64,000 nt of DNA, from the IMG/VR virus record IMGVR_UViG_3300016667_000484, positions 64,001 through 128,000 of that record. One strand, 5' to 3'. Positions 4,425 to 51,479 of this stretch are shown piece by piece. This stretch comes from a virus. Taxonomy: Duplodnaviria > Heunggongvirae > Uroviricota > Caudoviricetes. Both the position numbers and the translations under genes were made by a program. Each line of letters starts with the position of its first letter. Position 1 is the stretch's first letter. The notes beneath the pieces were generated by a model. It did not search any database. It had not been told where the DNA came from and worked only from the letters and a program-made list of their open reading frames with translations.

Positions 4425-5609
4425 TTATTTGTTGTTGGTTTTCTCATCATGATGTGCTTTAGCAGCTTCCATCGAATCGAATTCCTTGAAGTACTTTCGA
4501 TCAGGAGTGTGCACTGCGTAGGTTGCCTTCTTTGGCCACTTGTTGTAGATCTTAGTGATGCGAAGATCTGAAGCTTCGTTGATCTCGACTTCTTCCTTAA
4601 CAGCAGCTTTCTTTGCTGCTGCTTTAGCTTCTGCTGCTTCACGCTTTTTACGATCGGCATCCGCAATCTTATTCAACTGCTTTTCCTTCTTCATAGCAGC
4701 TTTCCAATATGTGTCACGCCAATCCTCTTGAACAACTTCTTCGCCAAAGCGCTTCTTGCCGTGTACTTCTTGAGAAACCTTGTTCACAATATCACGACGG
4801 TTGTCAAGCTTCTCACGGTACTTAACAGACTCTGGACTATTTACGGCGCTCTTCTTAGGACGTCCAGTCTTAGTGTACTTTGAAGGATCACGTGGTCTCT
4901 CGTATTTACCACGACTGGTGAAACGATCAACGACGTCTTGACCACCCTTTTCAACATAGCGCTTCTTCAGTTCAGTTGAGATTTCGTCGATCTGTTCGAC
5001 TTCTTCACGAGCCATGACCTTAGCCTTTGCTTTGTCGGCAGGATAAGTACCAAGCTTCTTGTTCGCGACTGAGATGCCCTGATTGCGATTGCCTACACGA
5101 CGAGCAGCATCATCACGCTCTTTCTTGTCCATTGCCATACCGCCATAGGTTCTAATATTTTTCTCAGCAGTGGTGCGGTCCTTCATAGCAGCCTTTTTGT
5201 CTGCACGGGACTTGTCAATGTAGTTACGAAGAGTTGATGCCGAGACTTCATCGAGTTCGATCTCTTCTTTCACTTCAATCTTGTGTGGATACTTACCTGC
5301 GTGCTTAACTGCCCATGCCTTCGCAGCATCAACAGTTTTGTGCGTGCCGTGATGATAAGAGTGGTCCCAAACGTTGTTTCCTACATCTTGCGAAACACCA
5401 TACTCACCATTTTTGCGCTTAGACACGATGTAGTGATTTGGTTTTTCTTCGTTGAGTCGACGTGCTTGTTCTGCTTCTGCAAGGCGAACGAAGTTCTTAG
5501 CACGAACGTGGGCTGATTCGTTCAATCCTACTGCGCCGTTACGCTGACGACGATAGAAAGCGATCGCCTCGGCAAGTTGCTGATTTGTGTATTGTGAAAA
5601 GTCTGTCAT
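4425..5609 (-). CDS. Modular putative internal head protein
   Basis: Basic modules separated by EEIELDEVS, EEVEQIDEIS, EEVEINEAS spacers. Confidence 0.6.
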   Translation of the reverse strand: MTDFSQYTNQQLAEAIAFYRRQRNGAVGLNESAHVRAKNFVRLAEAEQARRLNEEKPNHYIVSKRKNGEYGVSQDVGNNVWDHSYHHGTHKTVDAAKAWAVKHAGKYPHKIEVKEEIELDEVSASTLRNYIDKSRADKKAAMKDRTTAEKNIRTYGGMAMDKKERDDAARRVGNRNQGISVANKKLGTYPADKAKAKVMAREEVEQIDEISTELKKRYVEKGGQDVVDRFTSRGKYERPRDPSKYTKTGRPKKSAVNSPESVKYREKLDNRRDIVNKVSQEVHGKKRFGEEVVQEDWRDTYWKAAMKKEKQLNKIADADRKKREAAEAKAAAKKAAVKEEVEINEASDLRITKIYNKWPKKATYAVHTPDRKYFKEFDSMEAAKAHHDEKTNNK

Positions 5610-5618
5610 GATTTCCTC

Positions 5619-6284
5619 TTATTCTTCTTCTGAGTTAAAATCTTCTTCGTCGGCCATCTCTGACTCCATGTAGTCAGCAGCGCCAGTGATATAGTCGGTT
5701 GCTAGAACGATGTCTGCTACGATGTGCCCTGGAAGTTCATCGTCATCATCGAGAAGAGTGTGTAGTCTCTTCGCGGCCGCGATCATCATTCTTAGCTGGG
5801 ACTTAGCCATACCACCTTCTTGGCCATATTCGCCGTCGTCTTTAGCTTCACCATACATCTGTTTATACTTTTTCGTATACTGAGACTCTCTGGTTTTTGC
5901 AGTGGCGTCACCTGGTGCTGGCTTATACGCAGAAGGATCATCCCAGCTCTTGTTAGCACCTTTCTTAAAGTGTGCTGCGCGAGCCTTGTCAGTGGAGTTG
6001 TTCCCTGTGCTGTACTTAGAAGATAGCTCGGATTCTCTCAGGTCTTTGTCAGCGGTGTGATAGGTTTTGCCCTTAGTGATATACGAGTTCACTCTCGCCA
6101 TCGCCCATTGTTGTGGAGTTGTGCCGGGACGATGACCGGTGCGCCACGCGGCCATACCTCGGTTATAAACCTTTCTCAGAGTGCCGACCGAAATACCAGA
6201 AGCTTCGGCCTTTTTGGCCAAGCCGGTTTCGGCTGCTTCACTTATGTCAGTCGCTTCAGCTATGATTTGCTTGAATGTTTTCAT
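5619..6284 (-). CDS. Putative internal head protein (DUF5824-like) with capsid-targeting-like N-terminus
   Basis: MKTFKQIIAEA start; LAKKAEASGIS...VYNRGMAAWRTGHRPG..QQWAMARVNS domain. Confidence 0.65.
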   Translation of the reverse strand: MKTFKQIIAEATDISEAAETGLAKKAEASGISVGTLRKVYNRGMAAWRTGHRPGTTPQQWAMARVNSYITKGKTYHTADKDLRESELSSKYSTGNNSTDKARAAHFKKGANKSWDDPSAYKPAPGDATAKTRESQYTKKYKQMYGEAKDDGEYGQEGGMAKSQLRMMIAAAKRLHTLLDDDDELPGHIVADIVLATDYITGAADYMESEMADEEDFNSEEE

Positions 6285-6293
6285 GGTTTCCTC

Positions 6294-9200
6294 TTAGTAC
6301 TTAACGACTGGATTCGGAGTGGAGAAGTTCTTCTTGCGCATGATGGTCTTTGCCACGATGTCGATCTCATCATTCTTCGAGTCGTACTTGACTACTACCG
6401 GCATGTTGAGGTCTGACTGTAGATCCTTGACAACCATCTCTGCACCTGGCTTGTCTTTGAGAGGATTGCCATGCTTAGCGTAGATCTTTTTGATCAAATC
6501 AGCGAGTTCCTTGAGCTTGATCTTAGGCGAGTTACGATCGTCATTCATGCGCTCACCGAAGTGCTTAGTGAACTCAAAGTCGATCTTGAACTTCTCGAAC
6601 ATGCGGTCGACAAACTTCTCGAAGTCCTTCATCTTTGATGCAGTGATCTCGGTGTCCTCTGCTTCCTCTTTGATCGTATGTTCAAATGCCAGTCCAACTC
6701 GAGTGTGCTTCTTCTCGTCGGCGTACTTTTTCAGGAACTTCTTAGTCAGATCAGGGACTGCATTGGTTTCATCTGGCACAGTCTTCTTGAAGTCATCAGC
6801 ATCGACGTCGCCATCAAGGTCGGTGTCGACATGCATCAAGGCGTCTTTACCAATGTGCTTGAATGGAACACCGATTCCGAGCTCATGCTTGAATGGCTTC
6901 TTGTCTTCGCTGACTTGAACAACACTCGTCTTATACTTGTTTGGGTGTCTCTCAAGTTCTTTAGCGAGTTGTGTTGCCTTTTCGTGAGACATCGGTGTAG
7001 CATGCTTGATGTGCTTCTTGATCAGGTGTGCTGATGGTGTAGTATGCACGTCAAGGTAATGATCTTGCTTGTAGAATGGACTTTTGCCCTTCACCACATA
7101 CTTCTTTTCTTCAAACATATCTTCGAACGCTTCGTTGATACCATCAGTGATCTTTGGCTTAGTGACTACACCCTTTTCGCCTGGAGTAGCAGCTTTATAG
7201 TTTGAGACCAACTTGTCAGTACCTTCGAATCCAGCACCATAGCTCTCGTGATAGGTGCGGAACTTCTTCATCTTCTGATCGCGAGAAGTCACCGCACGAA
7301 GATGACGCTCGATGTGAGCATCAATCTCTGCTTTCGTGTTGACGTCCTTTGGCGCAGGAGGAATCACTGGTGCAGGGATCTCAGCTTGGTGCATGCTCTT
7401 CGGAGTAGATCTTCCAAGTGCTGGACCGGGAATGACTACGGCTTCACCGAGGTGACCATGTGAAGCGATCCATGCTTTCGCAGCTGGGCTCTTTGGCGGG
7501 TTCTTCGCCCAGGTCGAGATCTTCTTGTAGGTGTTCAGAATGGCTGGTTCAACTTCTTGTCCGGCCGAGTTGTCGATGATGTACATGTTGTTGCCAAAGT
7601 ACTGCTGGAACTTGCCGATGTTGTGCTGCACTTCTGACCACATAGTCTCGACTTCGCTGTCTGGCAGAGAGCGAGTGCGCATTTTGTTACGAGTCTTAGC
7701 TGTATCGAGGCTGGTGTTAACAAAGATCATCGCTACGTCGTAGCCGATCTTCTTTAGCTTCTCAGCTTGCTTCTCGATCTTTCCAAAGTCTTTACCAGTT
7801 CCGTCGATCACGAGACCAAGGCGGCCATGAACTGCGTGGTCCATGAGCTTACCAGTCAAAGCTTTTGCTTGACCACGAATCTCTTGACCTTTTGGCGAGT
7901 AGATGTTCTCAGGTGTTGATGCCATTCCCGCTTTCGCTAGAGCACGTTCGAACGCGTCATCGGAGTTGATGACTTTCATACCAAGTGCGGTGAGTGCGGT
8001 TCTACCGACGATGAATGACTTGCCAGAACCTGGACCACCAGCAAGGAAAACTGCCTTGAAGATAGATGGATCGTGTACACCTTCGTTCAGTGCTACTTCA
8101 AACGCCTCGTTGATGTGATTCGTCACGAGAGCGTTGACGTTGTCGAATCCGGCTTGCTCTTCAGTCTTCGATTCACTCAGGTTGTACATACCTTCGATGA
8201 ACGCCTCGAACACTACTTCAAAGTCAAGGCCTGACTTCTGTGACTTCTCGATAAGAGCCATCGCGATCTTGATGTCCTCAGGCGACTCGTCAAATGCCTC
8301 TTGAATCACATTGAGGAGTTCAGTGTCAGTTTGTTCATGATGCATGATGTTGCGGAACGCACGGAAGCGACGATCAAGCTTCGCTTTGTTGTGCTTGTCG
8401 AACACCATGTGATAACGTGGCTTTGTGCCTTCTTCAAGGAAAGCTTCAAACGATTCATTGATGTGGCTATTAGGTTGACCTGGGACGTGATGACCGGTTC
8501 CACCTTGGCCACCTTTGCTCAAGAGAGCAACACGAGCGAACTCAGCTTTACGTACAGTAGGAAGGAGTCGTGCTGCGATCTTCGCGATCGATCTTTTTCT
8601 TTCCTCGACACGCTTGTCGATCATGATCTTTTCTGCTGGCGAGAGGGATGCGTACTCGAGACCCTTTTCACCTGCTACTTTTCTACGAATGATCTGAATA
8701 GCTTTCTTACGAGCACGACCCTCAAGGTGCTTTTGGTCAGCGATGCGAGTACGTAGGCGCTCGCGGGACATCTCCATCTTTTTCTCGAGACGACGAGCTG
8801 TGATAGCACGCTTCATTCTCTCAGCGACGCTAAGCACGTGTTCTTCTAGTTCTACTTCTTCTGCCAATTTCATACCACCTCTAACTAGGCTATACACTTC
8901 GTCTGCGTGCTTCTGTAGGTTCTTTGGAAGACCGGTTTTGAATTTTGCTGAGTCACCTTTCGATGCGGCTTCTCTCATCTTTGACGCTGACATACCTTCA
9001 ACGCCTTCGGCATCAGGATCTCTCTCACCAGCAGAAACGACTTCGATCGACTTGAAGTTGAACTCCTTGCCGTTATACTTCTTTAGTAGTGTATCGAATT
9101 CTTGTACACGATCAGCACCGGCGACAAACACCACGTTATCGAAGTGACCGGTCAGAGACTTCATCACGTCGATTAGGGTTTTTGCTGGTGCTTTTTGGAT

Positions 9201-9506
9201 GATAGAACCGAATGCTTCTTTTGCGAGCATGATCTTGTCGTCGTACGACAGAGGGTTCTTTTTTGCGTCTTGAGAGTGGCTAAGGTATACTTGAGCGACG
9301 CCATTCGCCTTCTTTGCCAGATCCTTAACCTTGTTGACTAGCTTCTCATGGCCAACTGTTGGAGGGTTCATTCTTCCAAAAGAAACTACTGCGGTTTTAG
9401 CGTTCGCTTCTTTCAGTTCAGGATTCAGAATGATGTTGCTATTTTGACCACCGACGTTCTTATCATCAGGCGTCTTCTTTGCTTTCTTTGGCTCTACTGC
9501 CATCAT
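6294..9506 (-). CDS. Multidomain protein: HIGH-type nucleotidyltransferase + helical modules + zeta-toxin-like P-loop kinase + C-terminal RelE/BECR-like domain
   Basis: FGRMNPPTVGHEKL; VFLAGGPGSGKS...VIDGTG; C-terminal FTKHFGERM; late promoter upstream. Confidence 0.75.
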   Translation of the reverse strand: MMAVEPKKAKKTPDDKNVGGQNSNIILNPELKEANAKTAVVSFGRMNPPTVGHEKLVNKVKDLAKKANGVAQVYLSHSQDAKKNPLSYDDKIMLAKEAFGSIIQKAPAKTLIDVMKSLTGHFDNVVFVAGADRVQEFDTLLKKYNGKEFNFKSIEVVSAGERDPDAEGVEGMSASKMREAASKGDSAKFKTGLPKNLQKHADEVYSLVRGGMKLAEEVELEEHVLSVAERMKRAITARRLEKKMEMSRERLRTRIADQKHLEGRARKKAIQIIRRKVAGEKGLEYASLSPAEKIMIDKRVEERKRSIAKIAARLLPTVRKAEFARVALLSKGGQGGTGHHVPGQPNSHINESFEAFLEEGTKPRYHMVFDKHNKAKLDRRFRAFRNIMHHEQTDTELLNVIQEAFDESPEDIKIAMALIEKSQKSGLDFEVVFEAFIEGMYNLSESKTEEQAGFDNVNALVTNHINEAFEVALNEGVHDPSIFKAVFLAGGPGSGKSFIVGRTALTALGMKVINSDDAFERALAKAGMASTPENIYSPKGQEIRGQAKALTGKLMDHAVHGRLGLVIDGTGKDFGKIEKQAEKLKKIGYDVAMIFVNTSLDTAKTRNKMRTRSLPDSEVETMWSEVQHNIGKFQQYFGNNMYIIDNSAGQEVEPAILNTYKKISTWAKNPPKSPAAKAWIASHGHLGEAVVIPGPALGRSTPKSMHQAEIPAPVIPPAPKDVNTKAEIDAHIERHLRAVTSRDQKMKKFRTYHESYGAGFEGTDKLVSNYKAATPGEKGVVTKPKITDGINEAFEDMFEEKKYVVKGKSPFYKQDHYLDVHTTPSAHLIKKHIKHATPMSHEKATQLAKELERHPNKYKTSVVQVSEDKKPFKHELGIGVPFKHIGKDALMHVDTDLDGDVDADDFKKTVPDETNAVPDLTKKFLKKYADEKKHTRVGLAFEHTIKEEAEDTEITASKMKDFEKFVDRMFEKFKIDFEFTKHFGERMNDDRNSPKIKLKELADLIKKIYAKHGNPLKDKPGAEMVVKDLQSDLNMPVVVKYDSKNDEIDIVAKTIMRKKNFSTPNPVVKY

Positions 9507-9559: not shown

Positions 9560-9567
9560 TATTTATA
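9560..9567 (-). promoter_or_regulatory. T4-type late promoter TATAAATA
   Basis: Exact consensus upstream of the 1070-aa gene. Confidence 0.8.
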
Positions 9568-9574
9568 GTTTGGG

Positions 9575-10252
9575 CTATCTTAAGTTGTTTCTAAATGAAT
9601 CAATGAAGTGATAGTTGACTTCTGCAGACTCAGCCCAAAGCGTAGATTTTCTTAGCCATGCGATAGCTGGAGTTGGTTCCATCATCGCGAGAGGAGTTTT
9701 ACTTCCACGTTGTCCGCGAATGAAGTACGCGTTATCAACACATCCAAGGATACCTCTAGTCTCGATCTCTTGGACCAAAGTTCTAGCGGTATGACCGGTC
9801 ATGGCATACGCATGAGCTCCTTCATGACCATCGATGTCAAACACTCTGGTCGGAGGGCCGGCGGTGACGTGATCATACCGAGTGTGATCTCTCAGCTTAT
9901 AACCTAAAACAACTATTCTATTATCTGGCACATCAATGTCAATAGGATGAAGCATCAAAGCGTCGTGTTCGAGGACGACCGCACACTCGTCTCGGTCTCC
10001 GATGAGTTTCCAGATCGCAGCGTGCCCAGCTGAACAGCACGTTGGATTATCGATCATGTGATCGTATCGAGTCAAGTCGTTTGGATACTTGATCCCCGTG
10101 GCGTCCCAAGACGCTCTTGGATTCATTGCGTGGTATCCTTCAAAGAACTCGAATGGTAAACCAACATCGCGACATGACTGCGCAGCACCTTCGGCGTATC
10201 CACGAGAAAGAGGAGTGTCGATCCTTAAGATGTATGCTTTAGTAGGTTTCAT
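9575..10252 (-). CDS. Glycosyltransferase family 25-like protein
   Basis: CCSAGHAAIWK...VVLEHDA and GAHAYAM patterns typical of GT25. Confidence 0.65.
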   Translation of the reverse strand: MKPTKAYILRIDTPLSRGYAEGAAQSCRDVGLPFEFFEGYHAMNPRASWDATGIKYPNDLTRYDHMIDNPTCCSAGHAAIWKLIGDRDECAVVLEHDALMLHPIDIDVPDNRIVVLGYKLRDHTRYDHVTAGPPTRVFDIDGHEGAHAYAMTGHTARTLVQEIETRGILGCVDNAYFIRGQRGSKTPLAMMEPTPAIAWLRKSTLWAESAEVNYHFIDSFRNNLR

Positions 10253-10253
10253 G

Positions 10254-10895
10254 TCAGACTCCACGTGAGTAATCAGTGCCGCCACCTGTCGATCCCCACA
10301 GGTGCTTAGCGTATACTTTGTCTGTTCCAGAGTATTTGTAGTTAGGATCGTAGTGATCTGGGATGAAGTAATGAGAAGGCCAGATCGTGATCTTCGGCTT
10401 ATATTTTGGAATCACACGAGAGAGCCAAGCGTTACCGGTTGATTCCCACGGATGTGGGCTGAGCTGAAGAGGATAGAGCGTGTGCAACTCATCGATCAGT
10501 TGTTTGACAAACACGTTTCCCGGATTGCACGCAAGAATTGGTTGAACATATCCGCTTCGTGCGACTTCCTGCTCATAACAAGTGTAGCAATAGTCGGGAG
10601 GTGAAGTGAAGAGCTCTTCAGTGTTCTCGAGGCAAAGGAAGTCTGCTTCAGGGAAGAATCCGCCACGTTCATACAACAGCTCGTAGCGAATCAGATCTGA
10701 GACTCCACTGTATAGACCCTTAGCGAAGTAGTGCTCGATCAAGTGTTGGTTGTGAAATTTGCGGGACTCAAGATCTCTCTGGGTGAAGACTGAGTACTCC
10801 CAATCAGGGTGTTTCTCTTTCCATGTATTCATCCACTTAACAGGTGCTGGTCGTGGGCCGATCCAGATCTGCGTCATAATCTTATCAATGTTCAT
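10254..10895 (-). CDS. Glycosyltransferase family 32-like (DXD sugar-binding) protein
   Basis: IMTQIWIG...WKEKHPDWEY...SDLIRYELLYERGGFFPEAD. Confidence 0.75.
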   Translation of the reverse strand: MNIDKIMTQIWIGPRPAPVKWMNTWKEKHPDWEYSVFTQRDLESRKFHNQHLIEHYFAKGLYSGVSDLIRYELLYERGGFFPEADFLCLENTEELFTSPPDYCYTCYEQEVARSGYVQPILACNPGNVFVKQLIDELHTLYPLQLSPHPWESTGNAWLSRVIPKYKPKITIWPSHYFIPDHYDPNYKYSGTDKVYAKHLWGSTGGGTDYSRGV

Positions 10896-11446
10896 TTTAC
10901 AGTATACCACACGAAGTCATCAGTTTTGTTGTATTGGTTTTCAAAGTTCTTTTCAACGGCTCCTTTCACTGAATCGAAATGAATGTCATGCCCGATGATG
11001 AACCCGCCACGCTTAACTTTGGGCGACCAGTTCACGATGTCGTCGTCGACTCCTTTGAAAGAATGATCGGCGTCGATGAAAACGAAGTCTAACGAATTAT
11101 CAGGGATCAGCTTAGCCACTTCAGTTGTATATCCCTTGTGGAATACCGCTCGAGGTGCATGCTGAGCACAGAAGTCCATGATGTCACGGTAGTAGTGTTC
11201 ATGATTCCACGAGTGGCCGTTTTCACCCGGAAGCCATTTCTCTGGTCCAGTGTTTTCCGGCTGTGGTTCGTAGAGGTCTACGCCGATAAGTGTGAGGTTT
11301 GGGCAGTTGTTTATTAGATACTTGAAGGTGTGCCCTTCCCATGTTCCAAGCTCTGCGCCAGTCTTCCAACCATAAGTATTGCACCAATTCGCGATAGACT
11401 GCCATCTCCAGATGTTTCCACCATTATGTCCGCGGTCGTAAATCAT
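10892..11446 (-). CDS. Class I SAM-dependent methyltransferase (Methyltransf_24-like)
   Basis: GAELGTWEG, DFVFIDADHS, KRGGFIIGHD motifs. Confidence 0.8.
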   Translation of the reverse strand: MIYDRGHNGGNIWRWQSIANWCNTYGWKTGAELGTWEGHTFKYLINNCPNLTLIGVDLYEPQPENTGPEKWLPGENGHSWNHEHYYRDIMDFCAQHAPRAVFHKGYTTEVAKLIPDNSLDFVFIDADHSFKGVDDDIVNWSPKVKRGGFIIGHDIHFDSVKGAVEKNFENQYNKTDDFVWYTVK

Positions 11447-13290: not shown

Positions 13291-13665
13291 TCACCATGCA
13301 CGGCAAGACCAGTAACGTGCCCTGTCTTTTGGCTTAGGAACTGAAGGGTCGTCACAGCCATGACGTGCACGGAATGACTTACGACGGGCTGGGTTGTTCT
13401 TCTTGATCGTCATGTTTGGATCACCAAACTCGACTTTCTTCGCCTTGCCATCACCGTCTGGATCAACGTAAACCTTTGACTTCTTGACGTCACCAGACAT
13501 TGGTTTATTCAAGGGAACTTCGCGACCTTTGTAAGTCGCTTCATCAAGATCTTCGTCTTCCTTGATGCCTTTTTCGTTACGCGATGCCCAGACTGCTTTA
13601 CGCTGAGCGTCACTCTTGTATTCTTCTGTTTGAAGGAACTGTAGAAAACTCTTCATCGTTGCCAT
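13291..13665 (-). CDS. Putative internal head protein (DUF6321-like)
   Basis: MKSFLQFLQTEE N-terminus; FGDPNM..RRKSFRARHGC..ARYWSCRAW. Confidence 0.6.
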   Translation of the reverse strand: MATMKSFLQFLQTEEYKSDAQRKAVWASRNEKGIKEDEDLDEATYKGREVPLNKPMSGDVKKSKVYVDPDGDGKAKKVEFGDPNMTIKKNNPARRKSFRARHGCDDPSVPKPKDRARYWSCRAW

Positions 13666-14882
13666 CCTTTCATTACGTCGGCAGAGAAGTTTGCGTGGCT
13701 GAATTGCAGACGATCAATTAACTTCACTGCGTTCTTGCCCATGTGATCGATCGCGACGAATCCTTCTTGCTCAGTGACTTTATAGCCGTCAGTAGTCTTA
13801 AGGAACGTTCCGATCTGTTTTGCTTTGTCGAGCTTACGCACAACCATATGCTTAGCGTCAACAATCAGGTCATACATGGTAAAGATGTTCACAATTTCTG
13901 ATTTAGGTGTATTTGAGAAGTACTTCATCACCTCAGCGCGTTTGGCTTCCCATGCCTCTTTGCTCTTTGGTGTTGCCTTCTTGTCAATTTCTTTCTGATA
14001 GTAGTCGTGTACGTATTTGATCAAATCGTCAACGAATCTACTCGTGTCTCCGATGCGTTCACCAACTTTTACCTTTGAGTTGATGAAGGCTTTTACTCGA
14101 ATGAGAAGCTCTTCGTTATCGGACATACCATCGAGAGAAGATCTCTTCAGGCCAGAGAAGATCTTCCCGGCCTTTGACAAGATCTCAGTGATCTCTTTCG
14201 TCTCAGCTGCGTTGAAGTTTGCCGAACCCGAGACGTCTTTGTACATCGCGTCTACTGACCAGACCGATTTCGTTTTCTTGAGGCGGCTTGCGATCTCCTC
14301 TCCAAAACTCGCTGACATTGACTCAAGAGAGTCTCCTCGGTATGTAGTGTGCCAGACCACGCCAATTCTTGAGGCAAGGATTTCACGAGCGAGTTGACTG
14401 TTCTTCGGTACCGCGTAAACAATCGTGTTAGGATGAAAAGTAATATACGGTTCTCCGTCAATATCCACTTCTCGTAGATCTTCTCTCGAATATAGGAAGT
14501 CACCTTGAACCACTCCTGTAATGCCCAGCTTAGACAGCTCTTCAAGAGCAACCTTAAGCTTTGCGTTCAAATCACCTGATGTGTCTGCATCAATATCAGC
14601 TGGTGTCTTATACACCTTGGGATCTTTGTTGAAGATCCCCTTCTTTGCGACGAAGAACTTCCCGTCACGAGGATCGATGCCAGCGAACACAGCCGGCGCG
14701 CCGTCCCATTTGATGGTTACGTTCGAAGATTTAGTTGCGTTTCCCGCAAGCATGTCACGAAGAGAGCGAAGGAAGTTGATAGACTGACGAGCACCTTCGA
14801 CACCAGCATTGAGGATGTTGTCCTCGATGTGCTCCATGTGAGTGTTCTTAGCTTCAGTGAGGAACGTATTGAATCTGATCAT
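13653..14882 (-). CDS. DUF6267-like protein with ligase-type nucleotidyltransferase motifs
   Basis: MIRFNTFLTEAKNTHMEHIED start; TIKWDG, QGDF, EGFV, VKL motifs. Confidence 0.6.
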   Translation of the reverse strand: MIRFNTFLTEAKNTHMEHIEDNILNAGVEGARQSINFLRSLRDMLAGNATKSSNVTIKWDGAPAVFAGIDPRDGKFFVAKKGIFNKDPKVYKTPADIDADTSGDLNAKLKVALEELSKLGITGVVQGDFLYSREDLREVDIDGEPYITFHPNTIVYAVPKNSQLAREILASRIGVVWHTTYRGDSLESMSASFGEEIASRLKKTKSVWSVDAMYKDVSGSANFNAAETKEITEILSKAGKIFSGLKRSSLDGMSDNEELLIRVKAFINSKVKVGERIGDTSRFVDDLIKYVHDYYQKEIDKKATPKSKEAWEAKRAEVMKYFSNTPKSEIVNIFTMYDLIVDAKHMVVRKLDKAKQIGTFLKTTDGYKVTEQEGFVAIDHMGKNAVKLIDRLQFSHANFSADVMKGWQR

Positions 14883-15664
14883 AGCTGAACCTTAGGTTTT
14901 ATCGTACCGCTAGTCATGTGGTAGATGAAGATTTCGTTCTGCTTCACCTTCTTAACCGCTTCGATGTCGCCTTGCTTAGATGTCTTGCTGTTGTTGATGA
15001 AGATCACTTCGTGGTTTTTGAAGTATCCATCGTAAGCGATCTTAGCAAACTTTTCTTCAATCGCGTTGAACTCTGCTGGTGCTTTCTCCTTCATCGTCTG
15101 TAGTACAGTCGGTGCGATCTCGGTCGAGGTACCGGCCAGGCCAAGTCTTAGACGAAGCTGGTTGAGTTCTTTCTTTGTCTCGTCGATGGGAACAGTGCCA
15201 CCAAGCTTGAAGTCATAGGCTTGACGATCGCGACTCACCGACACTGCCTTTACTTCGTATCCAGTTGATCCGACGATCACGTCTAGACCTGCCGAAGATC
15301 CACCACCGAGCTTACAGTTGTTGATGAGAAAGTACAGCGTGACTTCACCTGGGCCAATGCCCTTTAGATTATAGCTATGGAGCTTCTTGAACATCGACAT
15401 GTCTTCTCTCTTGAGCAAAGATATGAGTCTGTTCAACGTTGTCAAGTTGACGCCATCAGTGGTTTTTGAGATGTCAAACTTAGGGAAGAAATGCATATTG
15501 AAGAGATACTGAATCTCTTTCTTATGTGTTGTTGAAGTAAATTCAGTCGCCGGAATATTGAACGAAGAAATTTTCAACGCATTGTTAATGAACTCCATGT
15601 TCAAGTCTGCCACGGTGATCTCCGATCCTGATGTTTCTTCTACAAAGACTCTAAAGCGTTTCAT
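14879..15664 (-). CDS. Putative PD-(D/E)xK-fold nuclease with capsid-targeting-like N-terminus
   Basis: MKRFRVFVEE start at 15664; GPGE...LDVIVGSTGYEVKA. Confidence 0.45.
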   Translation of the reverse strand: MKRFRVFVEETSGSEITVADLNMEFINNALKISSFNIPATEFTSTTHKKEIQYLFNMHFFPKFDISKTTDGVNLTTLNRLISLLKREDMSMFKKLHSYNLKGIGPGEVTLYFLINNCKLGGGSSAGLDVIVGSTGYEVKAVSVSRDRQAYDFKLGGTVPIDETKKELNQLRLRLGLAGTSTEIAPTVLQTMKEKAPAEFNAIEEKFAKIAYDGYFKNHEVIFINNSKTSKQGDIEAVKKVKQNEIFIYHMTSGTIKPKVQL

Positions 15665-15686: not shown

Positions 15687-15694
15687 TATTTATA
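15687..15694 (-). promoter_or_regulatory. T4-type late promoter TATAAATA
   Basis: Exact consensus upstream of the 15664 start. Confidence 0.8.
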
Positions 15695-45715: not shown

Positions 45716-47008
45716 TTAGAGGATGTTGGTAACGCGGACCTTGCGGTAGTACTTGTTAGCGTTAGCGTTAAGAGCGCCAGCGCCAACCGACAGACCTTCA
45801 GCGAATGGGTTAGCAACCATGCCGTAACGGGTTTTGAAGCCGATCTTCGACTGGAAGCTGTTCTCACCCACAGCGCGGACCATCTGCAGAGGAACATATG
45901 GGCAGTAGAAGAGGCCAGCGTCGAAGGACGAAGCACCCTTGTAACCTACAACCAGGTAGTTCGAGGTAGCATATGGGTCGATGTACACACGGAAGCGACC
46001 GTTAAGCACACCAGCGAAGGTGTTGCCGGTGTCGTCAACGTTCAGTGCGTTGCTGTTGAGAGCTGGGGTGTAGTCAAGGACACCAGCCATTTGCAGAGCC
46101 GATGCAACATCGCTCGAGCAGATGACCATGTTACCCTTACCACGACGGGTGTCTTTTGCGATCTGGTTAGCTTCGCGTTCGATCTGGAACATCAGACCCT
46201 TGAACTTCTCAACTGACCAACGGCCGTTAGCATCGACGTCGAGGTCGAATGTACCAGCAGCTGCCGTACCAGTTTGAGCACCAACAACCGAAACACCATA
46301 AACCGTGCGAACAACTTCACGGTTGATTTCTGCAAGCAGTTCAGCCTGAAGCATGTTTGCGAGTTCCGACTCAGCGTCAAGACCGTGGATTGCCTTCAGG
46401 TCCTGTGCGAGTTCAGTGGTGTACTCAGCCTTCAGTGCGCGGCTCTTTGCAGTGACCGACACTTTTTCGATGCTGAATGACATCTGGTTGAAGTCACCAT
46501 CACCTGCGCCACCCATGCCGAGACGTTCAGCAGCCGAGGTTGCCATACCAGTACCCGTGCCCCACTGTGAAGTGTTAGCAAAGTCGGTTGGGAAAGGCGA
46601 ACCGGTGTGAGTGCCGGTACCGGAGAAGTCGGTGTCAGCTTCGTTGTAGAAAGCTTCTGCCGTTGCTGCGGTGGTGTTTGCGTAGTTCGAACGCATCGCG
46701 AAGATGAGGCCGGTAGGACCGGTCATTGGCTGAACACCTGCGATGTCGTAAGCAATGAGGTTAGGCATTGCACGGCGAACGAGGGTGATAAGCACTGGGT
46801 CGTAGTTCTGAGCTACACCGGTGTTGTTGACATGTGCTGCTTCCGACAGGAACGAAGCTGGCGAATAGGTTGAACCTTCCTTCAGCGCCGATTCTGTATT
46901 CTCAAGAAGCTGAGCTGTAACAGCCTTGCGGTGATTGTCCTTAATTCCTGGAAGCGAATTGTGCTCCAGAACAGGACCCCACTTCTTCATTAGTTCTTCA
47001 TTTTTCAT
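45716..47008 (-). CDS. gp23: Major capsid protein
   Basis: GVQPMTGPTGLIFAMR, KSRALKAEYT.ELAQDLKAIHGLDAE, FYCPYVPL, GFKTRYG. Confidence 0.99.
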   Translation of the reverse strand: MKNEELMKKWGPVLEHNSLPGIKDNHRKAVTAQLLENTESALKEGSTYSPASFLSEAAHVNNTGVAQNYDPVLITLVRRAMPNLIAYDIAGVQPMTGPTGLIFAMRSNYANTTAATAEAFYNEADTDFSGTGTHTGSPFPTDFANTSQWGTGTGMATSAAERLGMGGAGDGDFNQMSFSIEKVSVTAKSRALKAEYTTELAQDLKAIHGLDAESELANMLQAELLAEINREVVRTVYGVSVVGAQTGTAAAGTFDLDVDANGRWSVEKFKGLMFQIEREANQIAKDTRRGKGNMVICSSDVASALQMAGVLDYTPALNSNALNVDDTGNTFAGVLNGRFRVYIDPYATSNYLVVGYKGASSFDAGLFYCPYVPLQMVRAVGENSFQSKIGFKTRYGMVANPFAEGLSVGAGALNANANKYYRKVRVTNIL

Positions 47009-47042: not shown

Positions 47043-47050
47043 TATTTATA
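47043..47050 (-). promoter_or_regulatory. T4-type late promoter TATAAATA
   Basis: Upstream of gp23. Confidence 0.8.
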
Positions 47051-47054
47051 CAAA

Positions 47055-47966
47055 TTAGATTTTGCCAAATTTGTCAAGCGAAGCAACATACGCTGCAACT
47101 GCTGGATTAACCGCAGGAGCCTTTTCGTCTACTTCTTCTTCAAGAACTTCAGCGTGATCTTCACCGCGAGCAACTGACTCAGTGAAATAGCTTTCCTTGA
47201 TTGTCTCAAGCTTTGCGACGAAGTCTTCTACTGATTCGTAGGAAACACCTTCAGCAAGAGTTTGGAAACGTGCTACGTCAGTAGCGACCATGCCTTCTGA
47301 GAGAGCAGCAAATGCTACGTTCTTTTGAAGTTCTTCTTTTTCTGCACGCTCAGCGATGAGTGCTTCGAAAAGTTCGTTGTACTTAGCTTCAGTCTCAGCG
47401 ACTTGCTCTTCCATTGCTGCGATAGCGTCAGCTTCACCTTCCTCGATTTCGAGGTCGTGATCTTCAACAAGAGCCTTGAGGCCATTGAGGATCGACTCAG
47501 CAACTTGTACCTTGTAGCCAGTCTCGAGAGCGACTTCGTTCTCAGCCATCCAGTTCTCGATAACGTAGTCGAGGTATGAATCGAGCTTGTCAGTCAGTTC
47601 TTCGATAACAGCTTCGGTCTGCTCTTCAAGAGCAGCTTCGAATTCTTCTTCGAGTTCTGCACGAACTGCTTCGACACGCTCATGAATAGCTGCTTCGAAA
47701 ATAGTCGTGGTCTTCGACTTGAAGTCTTCCGAAAGGTCAGTGCCGTCGAACAGAGATGCAATCATCTCCTTCAGGCCAGTGTCGTTCGAACCCATAGGAG
47801 TCTTCACGTTCTTTTCGATGTCTTCTGGTTTGCCGGTAGCGTCGTCTTGAAACTTGTCTGCTAGACGTTTCTTGACTGGACCGCCAGCGCCGGTTACTGG
47901 ATCAGCTGCATACGACTTTTCGCCGGTTGCCCACTTCTCTTCCAGGTTGTTTAGATTTGCATCCAT
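47055..47966 (-). CDS. gp22: Prohead core scaffold protein
   Basis: LSEDFKSK..TIFEAA, DSYLDYV..WM.EN; acidic coiled coil. Confidence 0.92.
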   Translation of the reverse strand: MDANLNNLEEKWATGEKSYAADPVTGAGGPVKKRLADKFQDDATGKPEDIEKNVKTPMGSNDTGLKEMIASLFDGTDLSEDFKSKTTTIFEAAIHERVEAVRAELEEEFEAALEEQTEAVIEELTDKLDSYLDYVIENWMAENEVALETGYKVQVAESILNGLKALVEDHDLEIEEGEADAIAAMEEQVAETEAKYNELFEALIAERAEKEELQKNVAFAALSEGMVATDVARFQTLAEGVSYESVEDFVAKLETIKESYFTESVARGEDHAEVLEEEVDEKAPAVNPAVAAYVASLDKFGKI

Positions 47967-48035: not shown

Positions 48036-48698
48036 TTATAGGCTCTTGAGGAACTTTTCAAATACCGCAATTACGGCAGCTTCATCAATTTGACTATAAT
48101 TCTTCTTCACTTGTTCTTCAATACGGTCAAACGCGTTTGCCGCTCTCCAAGATGAAGAAGCCACGTCATAAACCCACTCAACACCTTCCATAATACCTTT
48201 CACAAAGGCATCTGGTGCAGAAGGATCGGCGACAATATCGCCAGCAGTTGCAAGCATGAAGTCATTCTGGACTTCCATGATACCCTGCTTATTGGGCTTT
48301 ACCGAACCCATACCACGAGACGAGATACCGAGTTGAGCGCCAGAGTCGATCAGTCCCTTGACGACATCACCCATCGGTGTCTTAGTGATCTTTGCTTTGC
48401 CGACGACGTTTGAGCCGTCTGCCTTTAGTTCCGTGAAAAGGTGGGAAACCCGATCAAGGTTGATAGTTGGTCCTTGAGGGTGACCAAGTTCTCCAAACGC
48501 ACGATTCTTCGTGACGTAATTGTCGTTGTAGCGATTCATCTCACGAATCAAGACGTTCGAAGGATAGATTCTGCCATTTCTGTTCTTAATATCACCTTGC
48601 ATGATGATACCTTCGATGAAATAGTTCTTCTCACCCTTTTCGCTTGATTCAGTCAGATAACGAACTTCTTCAACGATTTCTTTAATGAGTAGTGCCAT
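48036..48698 (-). CDS. gp21: Prohead protease
   Basis: NRNGRIYP, GELGHP, GISSRGMGS, DIVADPSAPDAFV. Confidence 0.97.
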   Translation of the reverse strand: MALLIKEIVEEVRYLTESSEKGEKNYFIEGIIMQGDIKNRNGRIYPSNVLIREMNRYNDNYVTKNRAFGELGHPQGPTINLDRVSHLFTELKADGSNVVGKAKITKTPMGDVVKGLIDSGAQLGISSRGMGSVKPNKQGIMEVQNDFMLATAGDIVADPSAPDAFVKGIMEGVEWVYDVASSSWRAANAFDRIEEQVKKNYSQIDEAAVIAVFEKFLKSL

Positions 48699-48714: not shown

Positions 48715-48957
48715 TTATTTATAAGCTATGGCAACACAATTAACAGCAACGCTCGCTGCAATCGTATCAGTGGGTTCTTTGATAAAGAACTGCTCATTAC
48801 CGGCAATCATAGTGTATGTGCCAATAGTTCCTGAGGTGTTTGCAAAGGTGAGTACCGACGCGTTTGGTGCATGCACTCTGACGAGTGCAGCGCCTCCGAC
48901 GGTGTTAGCCGTCGTGACGCTGATCTCTGTTCCTTTGACTTTGATGTAGTCAGCCAT
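48715..48957 (-). CDS. Small hypothetical head-region protein
   Basis: ORF track; beta-rich; TAATG coupling. Confidence 0.55.
   Translation of the reverse strand: MADYIKVKGTEISVTTANTVGGAALVRVHAPNASVLTFANTSGTIGTYTMIAGNEQFFIKEPTDTIAASVAVNCVAIAYK
48716..48723 (-). promoter_or_regulatory. T4-type late promoter TATAAATA
   Basis: Upstream of gp21. Confidence 0.75.
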
Positions 48958-50879
48958 TAGATGTTCTCCGCGAAGCTAAGGATCTCTTGGAATCCTTTCT
49001 TACCAGACATCATACGCTCTTCCATCTTTGCCTTATTTGCACCGTTGAGTTGAGTGAATAGGCTGTTCAACGAATCCACTGACTCGCGAGTAAGAGTCAC
49101 TGAAGAACCATCATGAAGTTTCATCGCGCCGACTTTGAAAGCTTCGTCGATTTGCTCGGCTTCTTCTTTTGCAAGACGGTCTGCAGCACGCTGAATGCCT
49201 TTAGAGCGATTATCAGCATTGCGACCAGATTGCTTATACCATTCCTTATCACCGATATTAGCGGCAGTCATTCTATCTCTCATCGCATTTGGAAGAGTGT
49301 TACGATGCGCAACACCGGCTGCTTTCTTTACATAAGAACCGAGAGTCTTCCTTGAGAGCTCATCAAGTTGATCAGCATCTTCTTCCAACTTATTTAAGTG
49401 TGAATGATGAACATCCCAAACGGAACCATGAGTTCCATCTGCTCTGACTCTTGCGATGCCCTTTTTCGAACCCTTAGCCATATGGACAGTTCCAGTCATG
49501 CGCTTGCCTGAATCTGGGTCTTCCCAGTGAACCCTATCACCTGTTTGAATTGATTCATCAAGCCCTTCGACTTCTTCTTTCACTGCGTCTTCTGGATTCT
49601 TCTTGACTGGATTTGGCTTATTCGACTTCTTGTAAATCGTGTAGCTCGAGTTTTCCTGATCGATCGAAGCGTCTTCTTTTTGCAGAGCACGGCCAATCGC
49701 CTTACGACGATTCTTCAGATACTTGTCGGACTTATCAACGTCGCCATCATTGTCGATGTCGTCGTCTTCTTTACCGACGGGATCCATTGCTTCTTTCTTG
49801 ATGCTCTTTGCGATCTCATGACCCTTGATGATGGTCGACTTCTTCAGAGGAGGACGATCACCAGTTGCTTTCATAGCAGCGGCCATGCCAACTGCATATG
49901 GGTTTACAGCTTTTTCGTCAAGGTCAAATTCTTCAGTCAATGAAGGCTTAACCACATGATAGTTTGGTTCACTACGCATGCGACGTTTGTGCTCATCTTG
50001 GATCTCTTTTCTTGTATAAGATCCATGAGGGAAGTTATTAAGTGCATGGTACTTGAGTTTAGAGCTCGACATCTTATCGATGCCTTCTTCAAGCTCGACT
50101 TCTTCGCTCATCTTATTCGCAGCGAGTGTCATACCTTTGCCACGTTTGATGAAACGCTTGTAAGAATCTGTAGTCTTCTGAACGCTAGCAGGAGTGAAAC
50201 TCTTAGCAGACATACCCTTCTCGACTTCAGCCTTTGCTTTCTTACGATCGGCACCGGCTTTTGCATGATAGCTGCGCAGTTTGTCGTCTGAGAGTTCGTC
50301 AATTTGCTCGACTTCTTCGCTCATCTTATTCGCAGCGAGTGTCATACCTTTGCCACGTTTGATGAAACGCTGACTAGCATCAATAGTTTTCTGAACACTA
50401 GAAGAAGTGAAACTCTTAGCACCTCTGCCATTCTTAACATCATCACTCGAAAGACTTAAGTCTGAAAGACCTTTCTTAAGTTCAACCCTTGCTTTCTTAC
50501 GATCAGCACCAGCCTTTGTGTAATAGTCACGTAGTTTGTCGCCTGACAACTCATCGATCTGCTCGACTTCTTCTACTTTGATTTCACCTGCACGGCGCAT
50601 CACAGTCTTAGCCCGGCTCTGGCCAGTCTTTGGGTCGATCGCTTGGACAATGACTGGTTCTTTGTCAGCACGCTTGGTATGGACTTCAGCTGCTTCGTAC
50701 ACCGCAACGTCATCTTCCTGATCAGCCTTGCGCTTTGCCTTAGGCTTATCTGAAGTGAACTGCGACTCAGTGTCATACGGAGTCTTGATCTTCATGATGA
50801 CGTGTTTGTCTTTGAAGTTCTTCTCGTCACCCGAGCGAGGCTCGTAGACGGTCTCGAATAGTTTTGAAAATTTGATCAT
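48957..50879 (-). CDS. gp68: Expanded prohead core protein (gp68 position) with repeated modules
   Basis: Synteny gp20-x-x-gp21; multiple EEVEQIDELS spacers; C-terminal helical domain. Confidence 0.55.
   Translation of the reverse strand: MIKFSKLFETVYEPRSGDEKNFKDKHVIMKIKTPYDTESQFTSDKPKAKRKADQEDDVAVYEAAEVHTKRADKEPVIVQAIDPKTGQSRAKTVMRRAGEIKVEEVEQIDELSGDKLRDYYTKAGADRKKARVELKKGLSDLSLSSDDVKNGRGAKSFTSSSVQKTIDASQRFIKRGKGMTLAANKMSEEVEQIDELSDDKLRSYHAKAGADRKKAKAEVEKGMSAKSFTPASVQKTTDSYKRFIKRGKGMTLAANKMSEEVELEEGIDKMSSSKLKYHALNNFPHGSYTRKEIQDEHKRRMRSEPNYHVVKPSLTEEFDLDEKAVNPYAVGMAAAMKATGDRPPLKKSTIIKGHEIAKSIKKEAMDPVGKEDDDIDNDGDVDKSDKYLKNRRKAIGRALQKEDASIDQENSSYTIYKKSNKPNPVKKNPEDAVKEEVEGLDESIQTGDRVHWEDPDSGKRMTGTVHMAKGSKKGIARVRADGTHGSVWDVHHSHLNKLEEDADQLDELSRKTLGSYVKKAAGVAHRNTLPNAMRDRMTAANIGDKEWYKQSGRNADNRSKGIQRAADRLAKEEAEQIDEAFKVGAMKLHDGSSVTLTRESVDSLNSLFTQLNGANKAKMEERMMSGKKGFQEILSFAENI
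50093..50371. repeat. Exact 66-nt direct repeat (50093-50158 and 50306-50371) within duplicated protein module
   Basis: gctcgacttcttcgctcatcttattcgcagcgagtgtcatacctttgccacgtttgatgaaacgct occurs twice. Confidence 0.9.
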
Positions 50880-50891
50880 TTGATCACCTTA

Positions 50892-51479
50892 TTACTTTTC
50901 GGTTGCAGGAACTTTAACATTGCCTACAATTTTTCTGATGCCAATATCCATACCCTTGTTGCGCTTAGATAGTGTTTTTGGATCGTTGGCTGGAGCTCCC
51001 ATAGCAGCTCCTTTGAACACCTGACCGGAAGCATCATCTTTAGATTGCTGAGCTTTTTTGAGATAAGACACAACTGTTGGCTTTGAAATTTCATCGATTT
51101 GGTCTAGGTCTTCACACATTTCATCTTCTTCGAGGTCGACTTCTTCGCTAATTTTTTTCAACTGAGAATGTGGTACTTTAGTAGTAGTTCCGTGACTATT
51201 ATCAATACGTACTTGAGCGTGCTTGATTCCTTTTCTTTTCATACCAGAAGCCATGGTAACAACACCAGTAACGTTCTTTCCTACGTCGGGATCATGCCAA
51301 GAAACTTTATCACCGTCTTTAATTTCTTCTTCGAGGTCGACTTCTTCTTCATAAACAGCAGGCGAGAAACGCGACTGAATTGCTGCAGCCATCTTTTCTT
51401 GCATCACAGCATGAAGAGTTGATTCGAACGACGCAGCGTCCTTATTGTATGCTGCACTGATTAGGTCTCTAACTGACAT
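50892..51479 (-). CDS. gp67: Expanded prohead core protein (gp67 position)
   Basis: Directly after gp20; helical N-terminus then EEEVDLEE-flanked module. Confidence 0.55.
   Translation of the reverse strand: MSVRDLISAAYNKDAASFESTLHAVMQEKMAAAIQSRFSPAVYEEEVDLEEEIKDGDKVSWHDPDVGKNVTGVVTMASGMKRKGIKHAQVRIDNSHGTTTKVPHSQLKKISEEVDLEEDEMCEDLDQIDEISKPTVVSYLKKAQQSKDDASGQVFKGAAMGAPANDPKTLSKRNKGMDIGIRKIVGNVKVPATEK

Follow-up and report, generated by a model that had tools for sequence, protein, structure and literature searches.

Why would a large, marine T4-like phage string a nucleotidyltransferase, a kinase and a ribonuclease-like domain along one chain, and repeat nearly the same short spacer between them? 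This question is raised by an open reading frame (ORF), here called P0001, in positions 64,001 to 128,000 of the virus record IMGVR_UViG_3300016667_000484; this whole stretch of 64,000 nucleotides is the window of the present analysis. The window belongs to a 195-kb T4-like virus record whose completeness estimate is 'complete', and it also encodes DNA polymerase, UvsX, gp41 helicase, portal protein, gp21, gp22 and gp23. No near relative was found by megablast against phage records. The P0001 ORF occupies 6294..9506 on the minus strand, just as a preliminary description of this DNA had claimed, and would give a precursor of 1070 amino acid residues (aa), 119.6 kDa and isoelectric point (pI) 9.2. 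Its ATG is preceded by a GGAG Shine-Dalgarno sequence. From the N-terminus, P0001 comprises a disordered leader, a HIGH-type nucleotidyltransferase (NTase), two helical modules (m1 and m2), a P-loop kinase, a linker, a module with a DxDxDG loop (C1) and a RegB/RelE-like module (C2). All P0001 features and all genes of this genome for which coordinates are given below are on the minus strand.

The capsid targeting sequence (CTS) of phage T4 has been known for decades as the N-terminal tag of small internal proteins, and the CTS together with the gp21 protease is textbook knowledge. Here, we propose that P0001 is probably a capsid-targeted polyprotein which would be processed by gp21 into ejected enzymes; its cleavage, packaging, ejection and substrates are inferred. 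Targeting of P0001 to the head is the firmest part of this proposal and is considered likely, while cleavage between the domains is held somewhat less firmly, as the better bet. The CTS and gp21 principle in T4 and the virion detection of the NTase are already known.

Spacers and the capsid targeting signal

The preliminary description had quoted three near-identical spacers as protease-like sites, and all three are exact: S1, HINESFEAFLEE (residues 348-359; 8430..8465); S2, HINEAFEVALNE (residues 464-475; 8082..8117), directly ahead of the kinase; and S3, GINEAFEDMFEE (residues 789-800; 7107..7142). The earlier reading is refined in that the spacers, besides being candidate protease sites, also copy the T4 CTS. 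T4 gp21 cleaves after L/I-X-E, and the CTS consists of the first 10 residues of IPIII, with positions 4 and 7 serving targeting and positions 8 and 10 serving processing (PMC9026906). In the T4 genome, IPII and IPIII begin with MKTYQEFIAE/A, where the slash stands for the cleavage position here and below, and IPI begins with MKTFKEF. The T4 signal therefore features an aromatic residue at position 4, a hydrophobic one at 7, Ile or Leu at 8 and Glu at 10, followed by Ala or Gly, and the P0001 spacers carry the same signal. S1 reads S-F-E-A-F-L-E-E/G, which is the exact F4/F7/L8/E10 register of the T4 CTS and the gp23 site, and it falls within a stretch (residues 332-371) of low predicted local distance difference test (pLDDT) score. 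S2 and S3 retain F4, the hydrophobic pair and the Glu. Additionally, a degenerate fourth spacer, S4, VGLAFEHTIKEE (residues 937-948; 6663..6698), lies directly ahead of C2, and its position and register fit the spacer found ahead of C2 in most homologues. The propeptide of T4 gp23 has 65 residues (PMC9026906), and its site F-G-S-F-L-T-E65/A aligns with ASFLSE56/A in the gp23 of the window.

P0001 contains three copies of the spacer core [ILVM]NE[AST]F, and the other 260 ORFs of the 195-kb genome together contain one. For the CTS-register pattern F..[FILMA][LIVF].E, P0001 has 3 matches where 0.23 would be expected (P 0.002), and the whole genome has 23 where 12.8 would be. N-terminal matches to this pattern are borne by four proteins: a 221-aa DUF5824 protein, a 409-aa DUF6267 protein, the product of a 273-aa ORF when its internal ATG is taken as the start, and a protein encoded outside the window. 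The gp22 scaffold has three internal matches, of the form F-E-A-x-[LI]-x-E. Among 267 proteins of the family, 116 carry the spacer core, with 184 instances in total, and the family logo is [VI]-N-E-[AS]-F-E-x-[LFM]-[MLF]-E-[EA]-E. Of 158 unique instances of the motif, 145 have a [LIMFV]-x-E behind them, and after it Ala, Gly or Glu is most frequent. When the gp22 scaffold was modelled in complex with residues 336-380 of P0001, the segment around S1, the prediction was 'no answer' (score 0.00), which counts neither way.

Cleavage sites, linkers and late transcription

The full-length AlphaFold model of P0001 was built on a 59-sequence alignment. It contains confident blocks for the NTase (residues 36-217), the m1 helices (226-331), m2 (409-463), the kinase (479-684) and C2. 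Scores of pLDDT below 50 are found at residues 1-35, 218-225, 332-408, 464-478, 685-715 and 789-955, and these stretches cover every candidate cleavage site. P0001 contains 14 [LI]xE sites in all, and the stretches of pLDDT below 50, which make up 34% of its length, hold 10 of them (P 0.005). The folded domains hold 1 site against 5.0 expected (P 0.027) and the linkers 10 against 3.9 (P 0.002), and the depletion is also seen in homologous kinase and NTase domains. P0001 is set apart only by how its [LI]xE sites are divided between domains and linkers, and not by their count over the whole protein. In a control comparison, the excess of [LI]xE was strongest for gp22 (z 4.6) and gp21 (z 4.4), and core proteins were also enriched.

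Two further candidate sites precede the spacers. The Lys-rich disordered leader (residues 1-33; 9408..9506) ends with [LI]-x-E33/A, and E33 is invariant in 26 homologues and near-invariant in 59. The string EEVELEE (residues 216-222; 8841..8861), with the candidate gp21 site L220-x-E222, lies at the NTase/m1 boundary; E222 is invariant and L220 near-invariant, and the same string recurs in a 640-aa core protein. Both elements, LKE/A (31-34) and EEVELEE, had been pointed out in the preliminary description, as had IKEE (945-948) and the DxDxDG loop (894-899), and all of them are present. The predicted fragments are basic (pI 8.6-10.8), m2 excepted. T4 internal proteins are basic as well.

The machinery required by such a reading is encoded in the window, in line with the gp21 context assumed earlier. 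A gp21-type prohead protease (Peptidase_S77) lies at 48036..48698 (PF03420, 116 bits, above the family cut-off). The gp22-type scaffold (T4_CASP; E 1e-58), which has the three F-E-A-x-[LI]-x-E copies, lies at 47055..47966, and the gp23 major capsid protein, with its T4-like LxE/A site, at 45716..47008. Moreover, a T4-type late promoter, TATAAATA, precedes the P0001 ATG by about 54 nt (9560..9567, minus strand), and this match suggests that P0001 is transcribed late. The window holds 17 copies of the promoter where 0.9 would be expected; 16 of them are on the coding (minus) strand, and copies also lie directly upstream of gp23, gp22 and gp21. On an independent 139-kb contig (L013) with the homologue P0016, the late promoter is kept, as is the synteny of DUF6267, a methyltransferase, two glycosyltransferases and the polyprotein.

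P0001 resembles the CTS cargo of T4, which is expressed late, is basic, comes from a genome with gp21 and gp22, and includes host-takeover enzymes such as Alt. The difference is that T4 uses one N-terminal propeptide per single-domain cargo, whereas P0001 has 3-4 internal copies between the enzyme domains of a 120-kDa chain. Multi-site processing has a precedent in the giant phages phiKZ, 201phi2-1 and SPN3US, whose inner-body and ejection proteins are cleaved at many sites after Glu by a diverged gp21 homologue (PMC9026906). There, large proteins inside the head are split into several pieces, and the propeptide regions contain redundant sites (PMC9026906). However, the giant-phage sites are minimal (S/A/G-x-E) and not CTS-like, and the substrates, unlike P0001, do not consist of identifiable metabolic or RNA enzymes joined in a row.

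Homologues, stand-alone modules and virion proteomes

More than 2400 homologues of P0001 were found, many of them 800-1300 aa long and on contigs of up to 190 kb. As many homologues carry the same fusion on independent contigs, the P0001 fusion is not an assembly artefact. Mapping of 120 homologues gave a variable module string, NT, m1, (S), (DUF5824), m2, (S), kinase, (C1), link, (S), C2, where NT is the NTase and S a spacer. The positions of C1 and DUF5824 vary between homologues and some members have no kinase; overall, four modules recur in changing order, and the spacers sit at the junctions. Their conservation had been named as a check in the preliminary description; they are kept at module junctions in most homologues examined. 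Furthermore, a CTS-like pattern is present in the 32 residues upstream of 36% of internal C2 copies, against 8% of control windows.

In other phages the modules exist as separate proteins, and the CTS leader of these stand-alone modules occupies the position of the spacer in the fusion. The stand-alone kinase gp129 of HTVC008M begins with MIPFILKE/GLYDPGIFKA, which aligns at S2 with FEVALNE/GVHDPSIFKA of P0001. Stand-alone C2 proteins begin with MKSFEQYIEE (Paraglaciecola GD virus 1 gp42, GD1_42), (M)KTFLQFEQS (Melnitz_31), MKSFKEFIYE (metagenomic P0125) and MKTFKEFIAE (metagenomic P0255), the last being identical to T4 at 8 of 10 positions. Stand-alone NTases begin with MKSFSQFLTE (P-SSM2_194) and MKNFSSFLTE (S-CREM2 gp154). 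In the NTase of the jumbo phage GAP32, the leader is absent.

The arrangement in Pelagibacter phage HTVC008M (L002) differs from that of P0001: the kinase (gp129) and the NTase-DUF5824 protein (gp130) come from two neighbouring genes, whose order is the reverse of that in P0001. In the same phage, gp128 has a '..TNKYKKDTPGQ..' segment, which elsewhere is found ahead of spacers, and gp131 has an internal MVKSFKEVEE.

The NTase is homologous to the 'cytitidyltransferase' or NMNAT-like (nicotinamide mononucleotide adenylyltransferase-like) virion protein of cyanomyoviruses (P-SSM2_194, T4-GC190; S-CREM2 gp154; S-SZBM1_140), with 34-49% identity. For instance, S-CREM2 gp154 matches P0001 residues 40-223 with 34% identity (E 1e-26). 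A full CTS start is seen in 2 of the 3 cyanophage homologues inspected, namely the MKSFSQFLTE and MKNFSSFLTE quoted above. The cyanophage proteins are NTase-only, 286-425 aa long and bear a single N-terminal CTS, whereas P0001 adds the kinase, C1 and the RNase behind internal spacers. S-CREM2 gp154 was detected in CsCl-purified virions (PMC10665884), S-SZBM1_140 in virions (PMC9146016), and the NMNAT-like proteins of S-SCSM1 and S-CBWM1 likewise (PMC9602691). The CTS is not mentioned in any of these three papers (PMC10665884, PMC9146016, PMC9602691).

Weighing of the alternatives

The polyprotein reading set out in the preliminary description came out favourably in all the computational tests which that description had named. 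Several points weigh against it. The phage is uncultured, and the sole physical evidence comes from mass spectrometry of cyanophage virions, which detected homologues of the NTase. The authors of the cyanophage proteomes reported 'frequent detection', yet also noted that abundant late enzymes may co-purify. In S2 and S3 the CTS register is only partial, with A or M as residue 7 and, in S3, F as residue 8. In the upstream [VI]-N-E, Val is frequent at P3, instead of the L/I preferred in T4. Moreover, the N-terminus of P0001 (MMAVEPKKAKK..., running to LKE33/A) is not a canonical CTS of about 10 residues, and the site-depletion statistics are modest. Finally, gp159 of Sinorhizobium phage phiM12 is labelled 'hypothetical' while the same annotation marks other proteins as virion structural, which may mean that it was unseen in the proteome.

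The alternative that survives best, though we consider it unlikely, accepts head targeting through the CTS-like helices. Here P0001 would remain uncut between its domains, or be cut only at E33 and E222, and would be ejected as one multi-enzyme protein, like T4 Alt. The CTS-like motifs, the late promoter and the virion detection of homologues fit this equally well, and a T4 CTS with Asp at position 10 retains targeting but loses processing (PMC9026906), while S2 and S3 are off the ideal register. However, nearly all spacers keep [LIMFV]-x-E followed by Ala, Gly or Glu, and the sites cluster in linkers and avoid domains. In addition, each module is found elsewhere as a separate CTS-headed protein, so that the separated state is functional.

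Somewhat more doubtful is the proposal that P0001 is a late cytoplasmic multi-enzyme, acting in NadR-like NAD (nicotinamide adenine dinucleotide) salvage or in RNA repair and processing, which is never packaged and whose spacers are interdomain or oligomerisation helices. Fusions of an NTase to a P-loop kinase are common in metabolism, and NadR aligns with both domains (Z 10.6). The co-occurrence of the modules in any order would also fit a functional pathway, and the co-purification caveat of the cyanophage authors fits as well. What this leaves unexplained is a linker motif equal to the N-terminal CTS and the scaffold repeats of the same phage, stand-alone modules starting with MK[ST]F..[FY][IL].E, the missing leader in the GAP32 jumbo-phage NTase, and the detection of the NTase in four independent virion proteomes.

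A chance or low-complexity motif in an E/F/A-rich protein, combined with an artefactual fusion, is effectively refuted: P0001 is Glu/Lys-rich and in a protein of this kind short motifs do recur by chance, but 3 matches stand against 0.23 expected (P 0.002), the motif sits at equivalent junctions in 116 of 267 family proteins, and the more than 2400 homologues come from independent samples. A capsid-targeted polyprotein that is cut by gp21 is retained as the probable reading.

Enzyme modules

The NTase (residues 36-217; 8856..9401) is NMNAT/PPAT-like (PPAT, phosphopantetheine adenylyltransferase). The HIGH-type assignment made earlier stands: Pfam CTP_transf_like (PF01467) scores 23.7 bits at residues 43-152 against a threshold of 21, and the motifs GRMNPPTVGH (44-53) and SASKMR (173-178), that is T50-x-G52-H53 and S173-A-S-x-M-R178, are invariant in 26 homologues. 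By structural comparison (VIA), the nearest folds are NadM 2qjt (Z 13.4), NMNAT 1f9a (Z 13.2) and PPAT 4nah (Z 12.7), followed by many nicotinate mononucleotide adenylyltransferases (NaMNATs) at about 12; PPAT, within 1 Z of the NMNATs, is effectively tied with them. Profile searches against the PDB gave weak matches to PPAT (0.0076) and MJ0951 (0.0044). In the ESM Atlas, the NTase falls in virus-only CTP_transf_like clusters. NMNAT activity is a possibility, which we rate at a little below even.

The analogy with NadR drawn in the preliminary description holds at the level of folds, since NMNATs, nearly tied with PPAT, are the closest folds to the NTase and NadR aligns with both domains, although the superposition is poor (root-mean-square deviation, rmsd, 24 A). 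NadR has a HIGH NTase followed by a P-loop kinase, and P0001 has the same N-to-C order; the best structural matches of its NTase are NadM and the archaeal NMNAT (Z 13.4 and 13.2). Unlike NadR, P0001 lacks a helix-turn-helix domain, has about 260 residues and two spacers between NTase and kinase, and has a kinase whose structure resembles PSTK, Pnkp and zeta more than it does the kinase of NadR. Coenzyme A (CoA) synthase, which joins PPAT to dephospho-CoA kinase (DPCK), and 3'-phosphoadenosine 5'-phosphosulfate (PAPS) synthase were also considered as architectural analogues; for these, the structural comparison offers only the near-tied PPAT (Z 12.7) and lower-ranked kinase matches to DPCK and PAPS synthase. 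The phiM12 protein gp159 (L001:6001-7809) has the architecture NT-m1-m2-C2, without a kinase, and its C2 is well conserved. Its NTase may be inactive, as the signature TVEH replaces TxGH.

Two small modules follow the NTase. Module m1 (residues 226-331; 8514..8831; pLDDT 80-92) is Arg/Lys-rich and helical, has many invariant Arg residues and stands after the NTase in nearly all NTase-bearing homologues; the predicted fragment containing it (223-359) has pI 10.8. Module m2 (residues 409-463; 8118..8282), small, acidic and helical, is defined by the model and by homologue mapping.

The P-loop kinase (residues 479-684; 7455..8072) is of the PNK/PSTK/zeta-like type by Pfam, VIA and Foldseek, as the preliminary description had in part foreseen: residues 484-622 match Zeta_toxin (39.8 against 22.3 bits) and AAA_33 (41 against 27 bits), both above threshold. 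The Walker A motif GGPGSGKS (490-497), Asp516 of NSDD and several Arg residues are invariant in homologues. The VIA comparison places PSTK first (Z 15.7), followed by Clostridium thermocellum Pnkp (15.0), zeta (13.2), T4 PNK (13.0), and then Kti12 and Pnkp1, and the top Foldseek TM-score is 0.71, to CthPnk. Profile matches to the PDB are weak (AK5 0.0043, PSTK 0.0075, zeta 0.083). As tRNA and polynucleotide kinases are no more distant from this kinase than zeta toxin is, the phosphorylation of UDP-N-acetylglucosamine suggested earlier finds no specific support. No antitoxin-family match was seen in the annotated neighbour genes, although no search aimed at antitoxins was made. The preliminary description had also allowed for domains that are catalytically dead scaffolds; since the catalytic motifs are invariant, this does not apply to the NTase or the kinase.

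Behind the kinase, a conserved linker (residues 716-788; 7143..7361) consists of one helix and a ...GAGFEGTDKL..Y....PGE... segment, and is commonly found ahead of a spacer and C2. The C1 module (residues 802-944; 6675..7103), delimited by homologue mapping, carries the DxDxDG loop at 894-899 (6810-6827). C1 is mobile among homologues; in the full-length model its pLDDT is below 50 and the alignment is poor there. The best ESM Atlas match of C1 was 0.79, which is under the lead threshold.

The C-terminal domain with FTKHFGER, noticed in the preliminary description, is confirmed as C2 (residues 951-1070; 6297..6656), which has a RegB/RelE-type RNase fold by its AlphaFold2 (AF2) model, VIA and Foldseek. 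Folded alone by AF2, it reaches pLDDT 90.8. The best VIA match is T4 RegB 2hx6 (Z 7.0, 116 of 126 residues, rmsd 5.2 A), followed by RelE, HigB2, ParE and YafQ at Z 4.4-5.7; these Z values are modest. Foldseek finds HigB2 (probability 0.82) and RelE in the PDB, ParE/RelE in AFDB clusters and a RegB-family protein in BFVD (E 7.9e-5, TM 0.60-0.65). In the C2 alignment (A3), E963, H982, R986, R991, N992, N1034, K1053, T1054, R1057 and K1058 are invariant, and these polar residues argue for an active site. Sequence homology of C2 to RegB was undetected, with hhalign of A3 against T4 RegB giving a probability of 0.2% and E 0.28; in this non-significant alignment, the invariant H982-x3-R986 falls on RegB H48-x3-R52. 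The catalytic histidines of RegB are H48 and H68 (PMC3014915), and H68 has no invariant counterpart in A3. Overall, C2 is predicted, with better than even confidence, to be an RNase.

C2 is 91-100% identical in homologues that are only about 50-65% identical overall. Its family comprises 1131 representative clusters at 50% identity, in proteins of 105-1317 aa. The position of C2 is promiscuous, at either protein end or in the middle, and its partners are nearly always the same, namely the NTase, the kinase and DUF5824. The alpha/beta fold, in which two helices pack against a sheet of four strands, is shared with T4 RegB and with RelE, HigB and YoeB, and C2 also has the extra N-terminal helix of RegB. 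Unlike C2, RegB is an early, non-packaged protein, and unlike the RelE/HigB/YoeB toxins, C2 has no antitoxin partner among the annotated neighbours (no dedicated search was made). Distant C2 relatives, with 26-32% identity, are present in Klebsiella phage Kp4865-1 (H117) and Escherichia phage Phi05_1387 B (H118). These records are small (19-41 kb), unannotated and not T4-like, which places the RNase-like module also outside the CTS context.

Several searches with P0001 added little. Foldseek with the full-length model returned kinase matches only, and the NTase was placed only by VIA. Single-sequence PDB searches with three P0001 domains gave only noise, and the NCBIfam search gave nothing useful. 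Among PHROGs, phrog_23027 and phrog_3041 ('cytidyltransferase') match residues 2-462, phrog_12810 matches the kinase and phrog_14518 residues 954-1067.

Neighbouring genes

Directly downstream and co-oriented lies the gene of a 221-aa DUF5824 protein (5619..6284), which starts with the T4-type CTS MKTFKQIIAE/A; in many homologues, DUF5824 is part of the polyprotein itself. It is followed by a K/E-rich 394-aa protein (4425..5609) with EEVEQIDE-type and LAE/A sites, which is enriched in [LI]xE (z 3.1) and is likely another head-internal protein. The DUF5824, 394-aa and 119-aa head-protein genes are probably co-transcribed with P0001, as there is no further TATAAATA between 9506 and 4033. Sites such as those at 47043, 48007, 48716 and 53699 mark nearly all minus-strand late units and provide a late-gene map.

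Directly upstream (9575-11446) are a GT25-like glycosyltransferase, a DXD sugar-binding glycosyltransferase and Methyltransf_24, in the same order as on contig L013. Further upstream, CTS-like starts are carried by a 124-aa protein (13291-13665; MATMKSFLQFLQTE), the DUF6267 protein (409 aa, 13653-14882, E 4e-111; MIRFNTFLTE) and a 261-aa protein (14879-15664; MKRFRVFVEE), read from an internal ATG of the 273-aa ORF. A late promoter is present at 15687-15694. In phrog_455 proteins of other phages, a DUF6267 domain is joined to a P0001-type NTase. Outside the window, a 335-aa protein (G000:C1:171924-172931) starts with MQSFKHFFVE and is a candidate CTS cargo.

Between the portal gene and gp21, in the position of T4 gp67/gp68, are K/E-rich proteins of 640 aa (48957-50879) and 195 aa (50892-51479) with repeated EEVEQIDE/LS, EEVELEE/G and EEVDLEE strings. 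Judged from these repeats, they are prohead-core proteins that gp21 probably cuts at several sites. The DIDNDGDVD loop of the 640-aa protein resembles the DTDLDGDVD loop in C1 of P0001.

Proposed mechanism and implications

In the mechanism proposed here, P0001 would be made late and join the scaffolding core of the prohead via its CTS-like helices. The gp21-type protease would then cut after L/I-x-E in the flexible linkers, at E33, E222, S1-S3 and the degenerate S4. This would release an NMNAT-like NTase of about 21 kDa, an Arg-rich helical fragment of about 16 kDa (pI 10.8), a small acidic one of about 13 kDa, a PNK/zeta-type kinase of about 35 kDa, a DxDxDG-loop module of about 17 kDa and a RegB/RelE-like endoribonuclease of about 14 kDa. 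Staying inside the DNA-filled head and reaching the host together with the genome, the fragments would be able to act ahead of any phage gene expression. Our leading guess for their function is cleavage of host mRNA by C2, together with NAD or RNA-end chemistry by the NTase/kinase pair. Candidate purposes are instant shut-off of host mRNA, NAD+ reconstitution and RNA end healing.

In the literature searched, CTS leaders were not recognised on marine-phage enzymes, and neither reiterated internal CTS and cleavage cassettes nor a RegB-like cargo family was described. Likewise, no extension of the CTS to the abundant T4-like phages of the sea, to enzymes or to internal polyprotein positions was found there, nor anything on DUF5824, DUF6267 or the CTS in cyanophages and pelagiphages.

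If the proposed reading is true, it would explain why cytidylyltransferase/NMNAT-like proteins and kinases recur in cyanophage virion proteomes, and the large RegB/RelE-like RNase family, with its 1131 clusters, would be probable injected cargo. It would also offer natural multi-cargo designs for T4-based protein delivery. Furthermore, it would supply a sequence rule for predicting phage proteins delivered with the DNA, with a bearing on host shut-off and counter-defence at the onset of infection. More tentatively, reiterated internal CTS and cleavage cassettes may form a general modular grammar of T4-like marine and soil phages, in which NTase, kinase, RNase, DUF5824, DUF6267 and other modules are strung together, packaged and cut in the head. 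Should this hold, such phages would inject a kit at time zero that combines an mRNA-cutting RNase for host shut-off with NAD or RNA-end repair enzymes against abortive-infection defences, and the injected proteome of uncultured T4-like phages would become readable directly from sequence.

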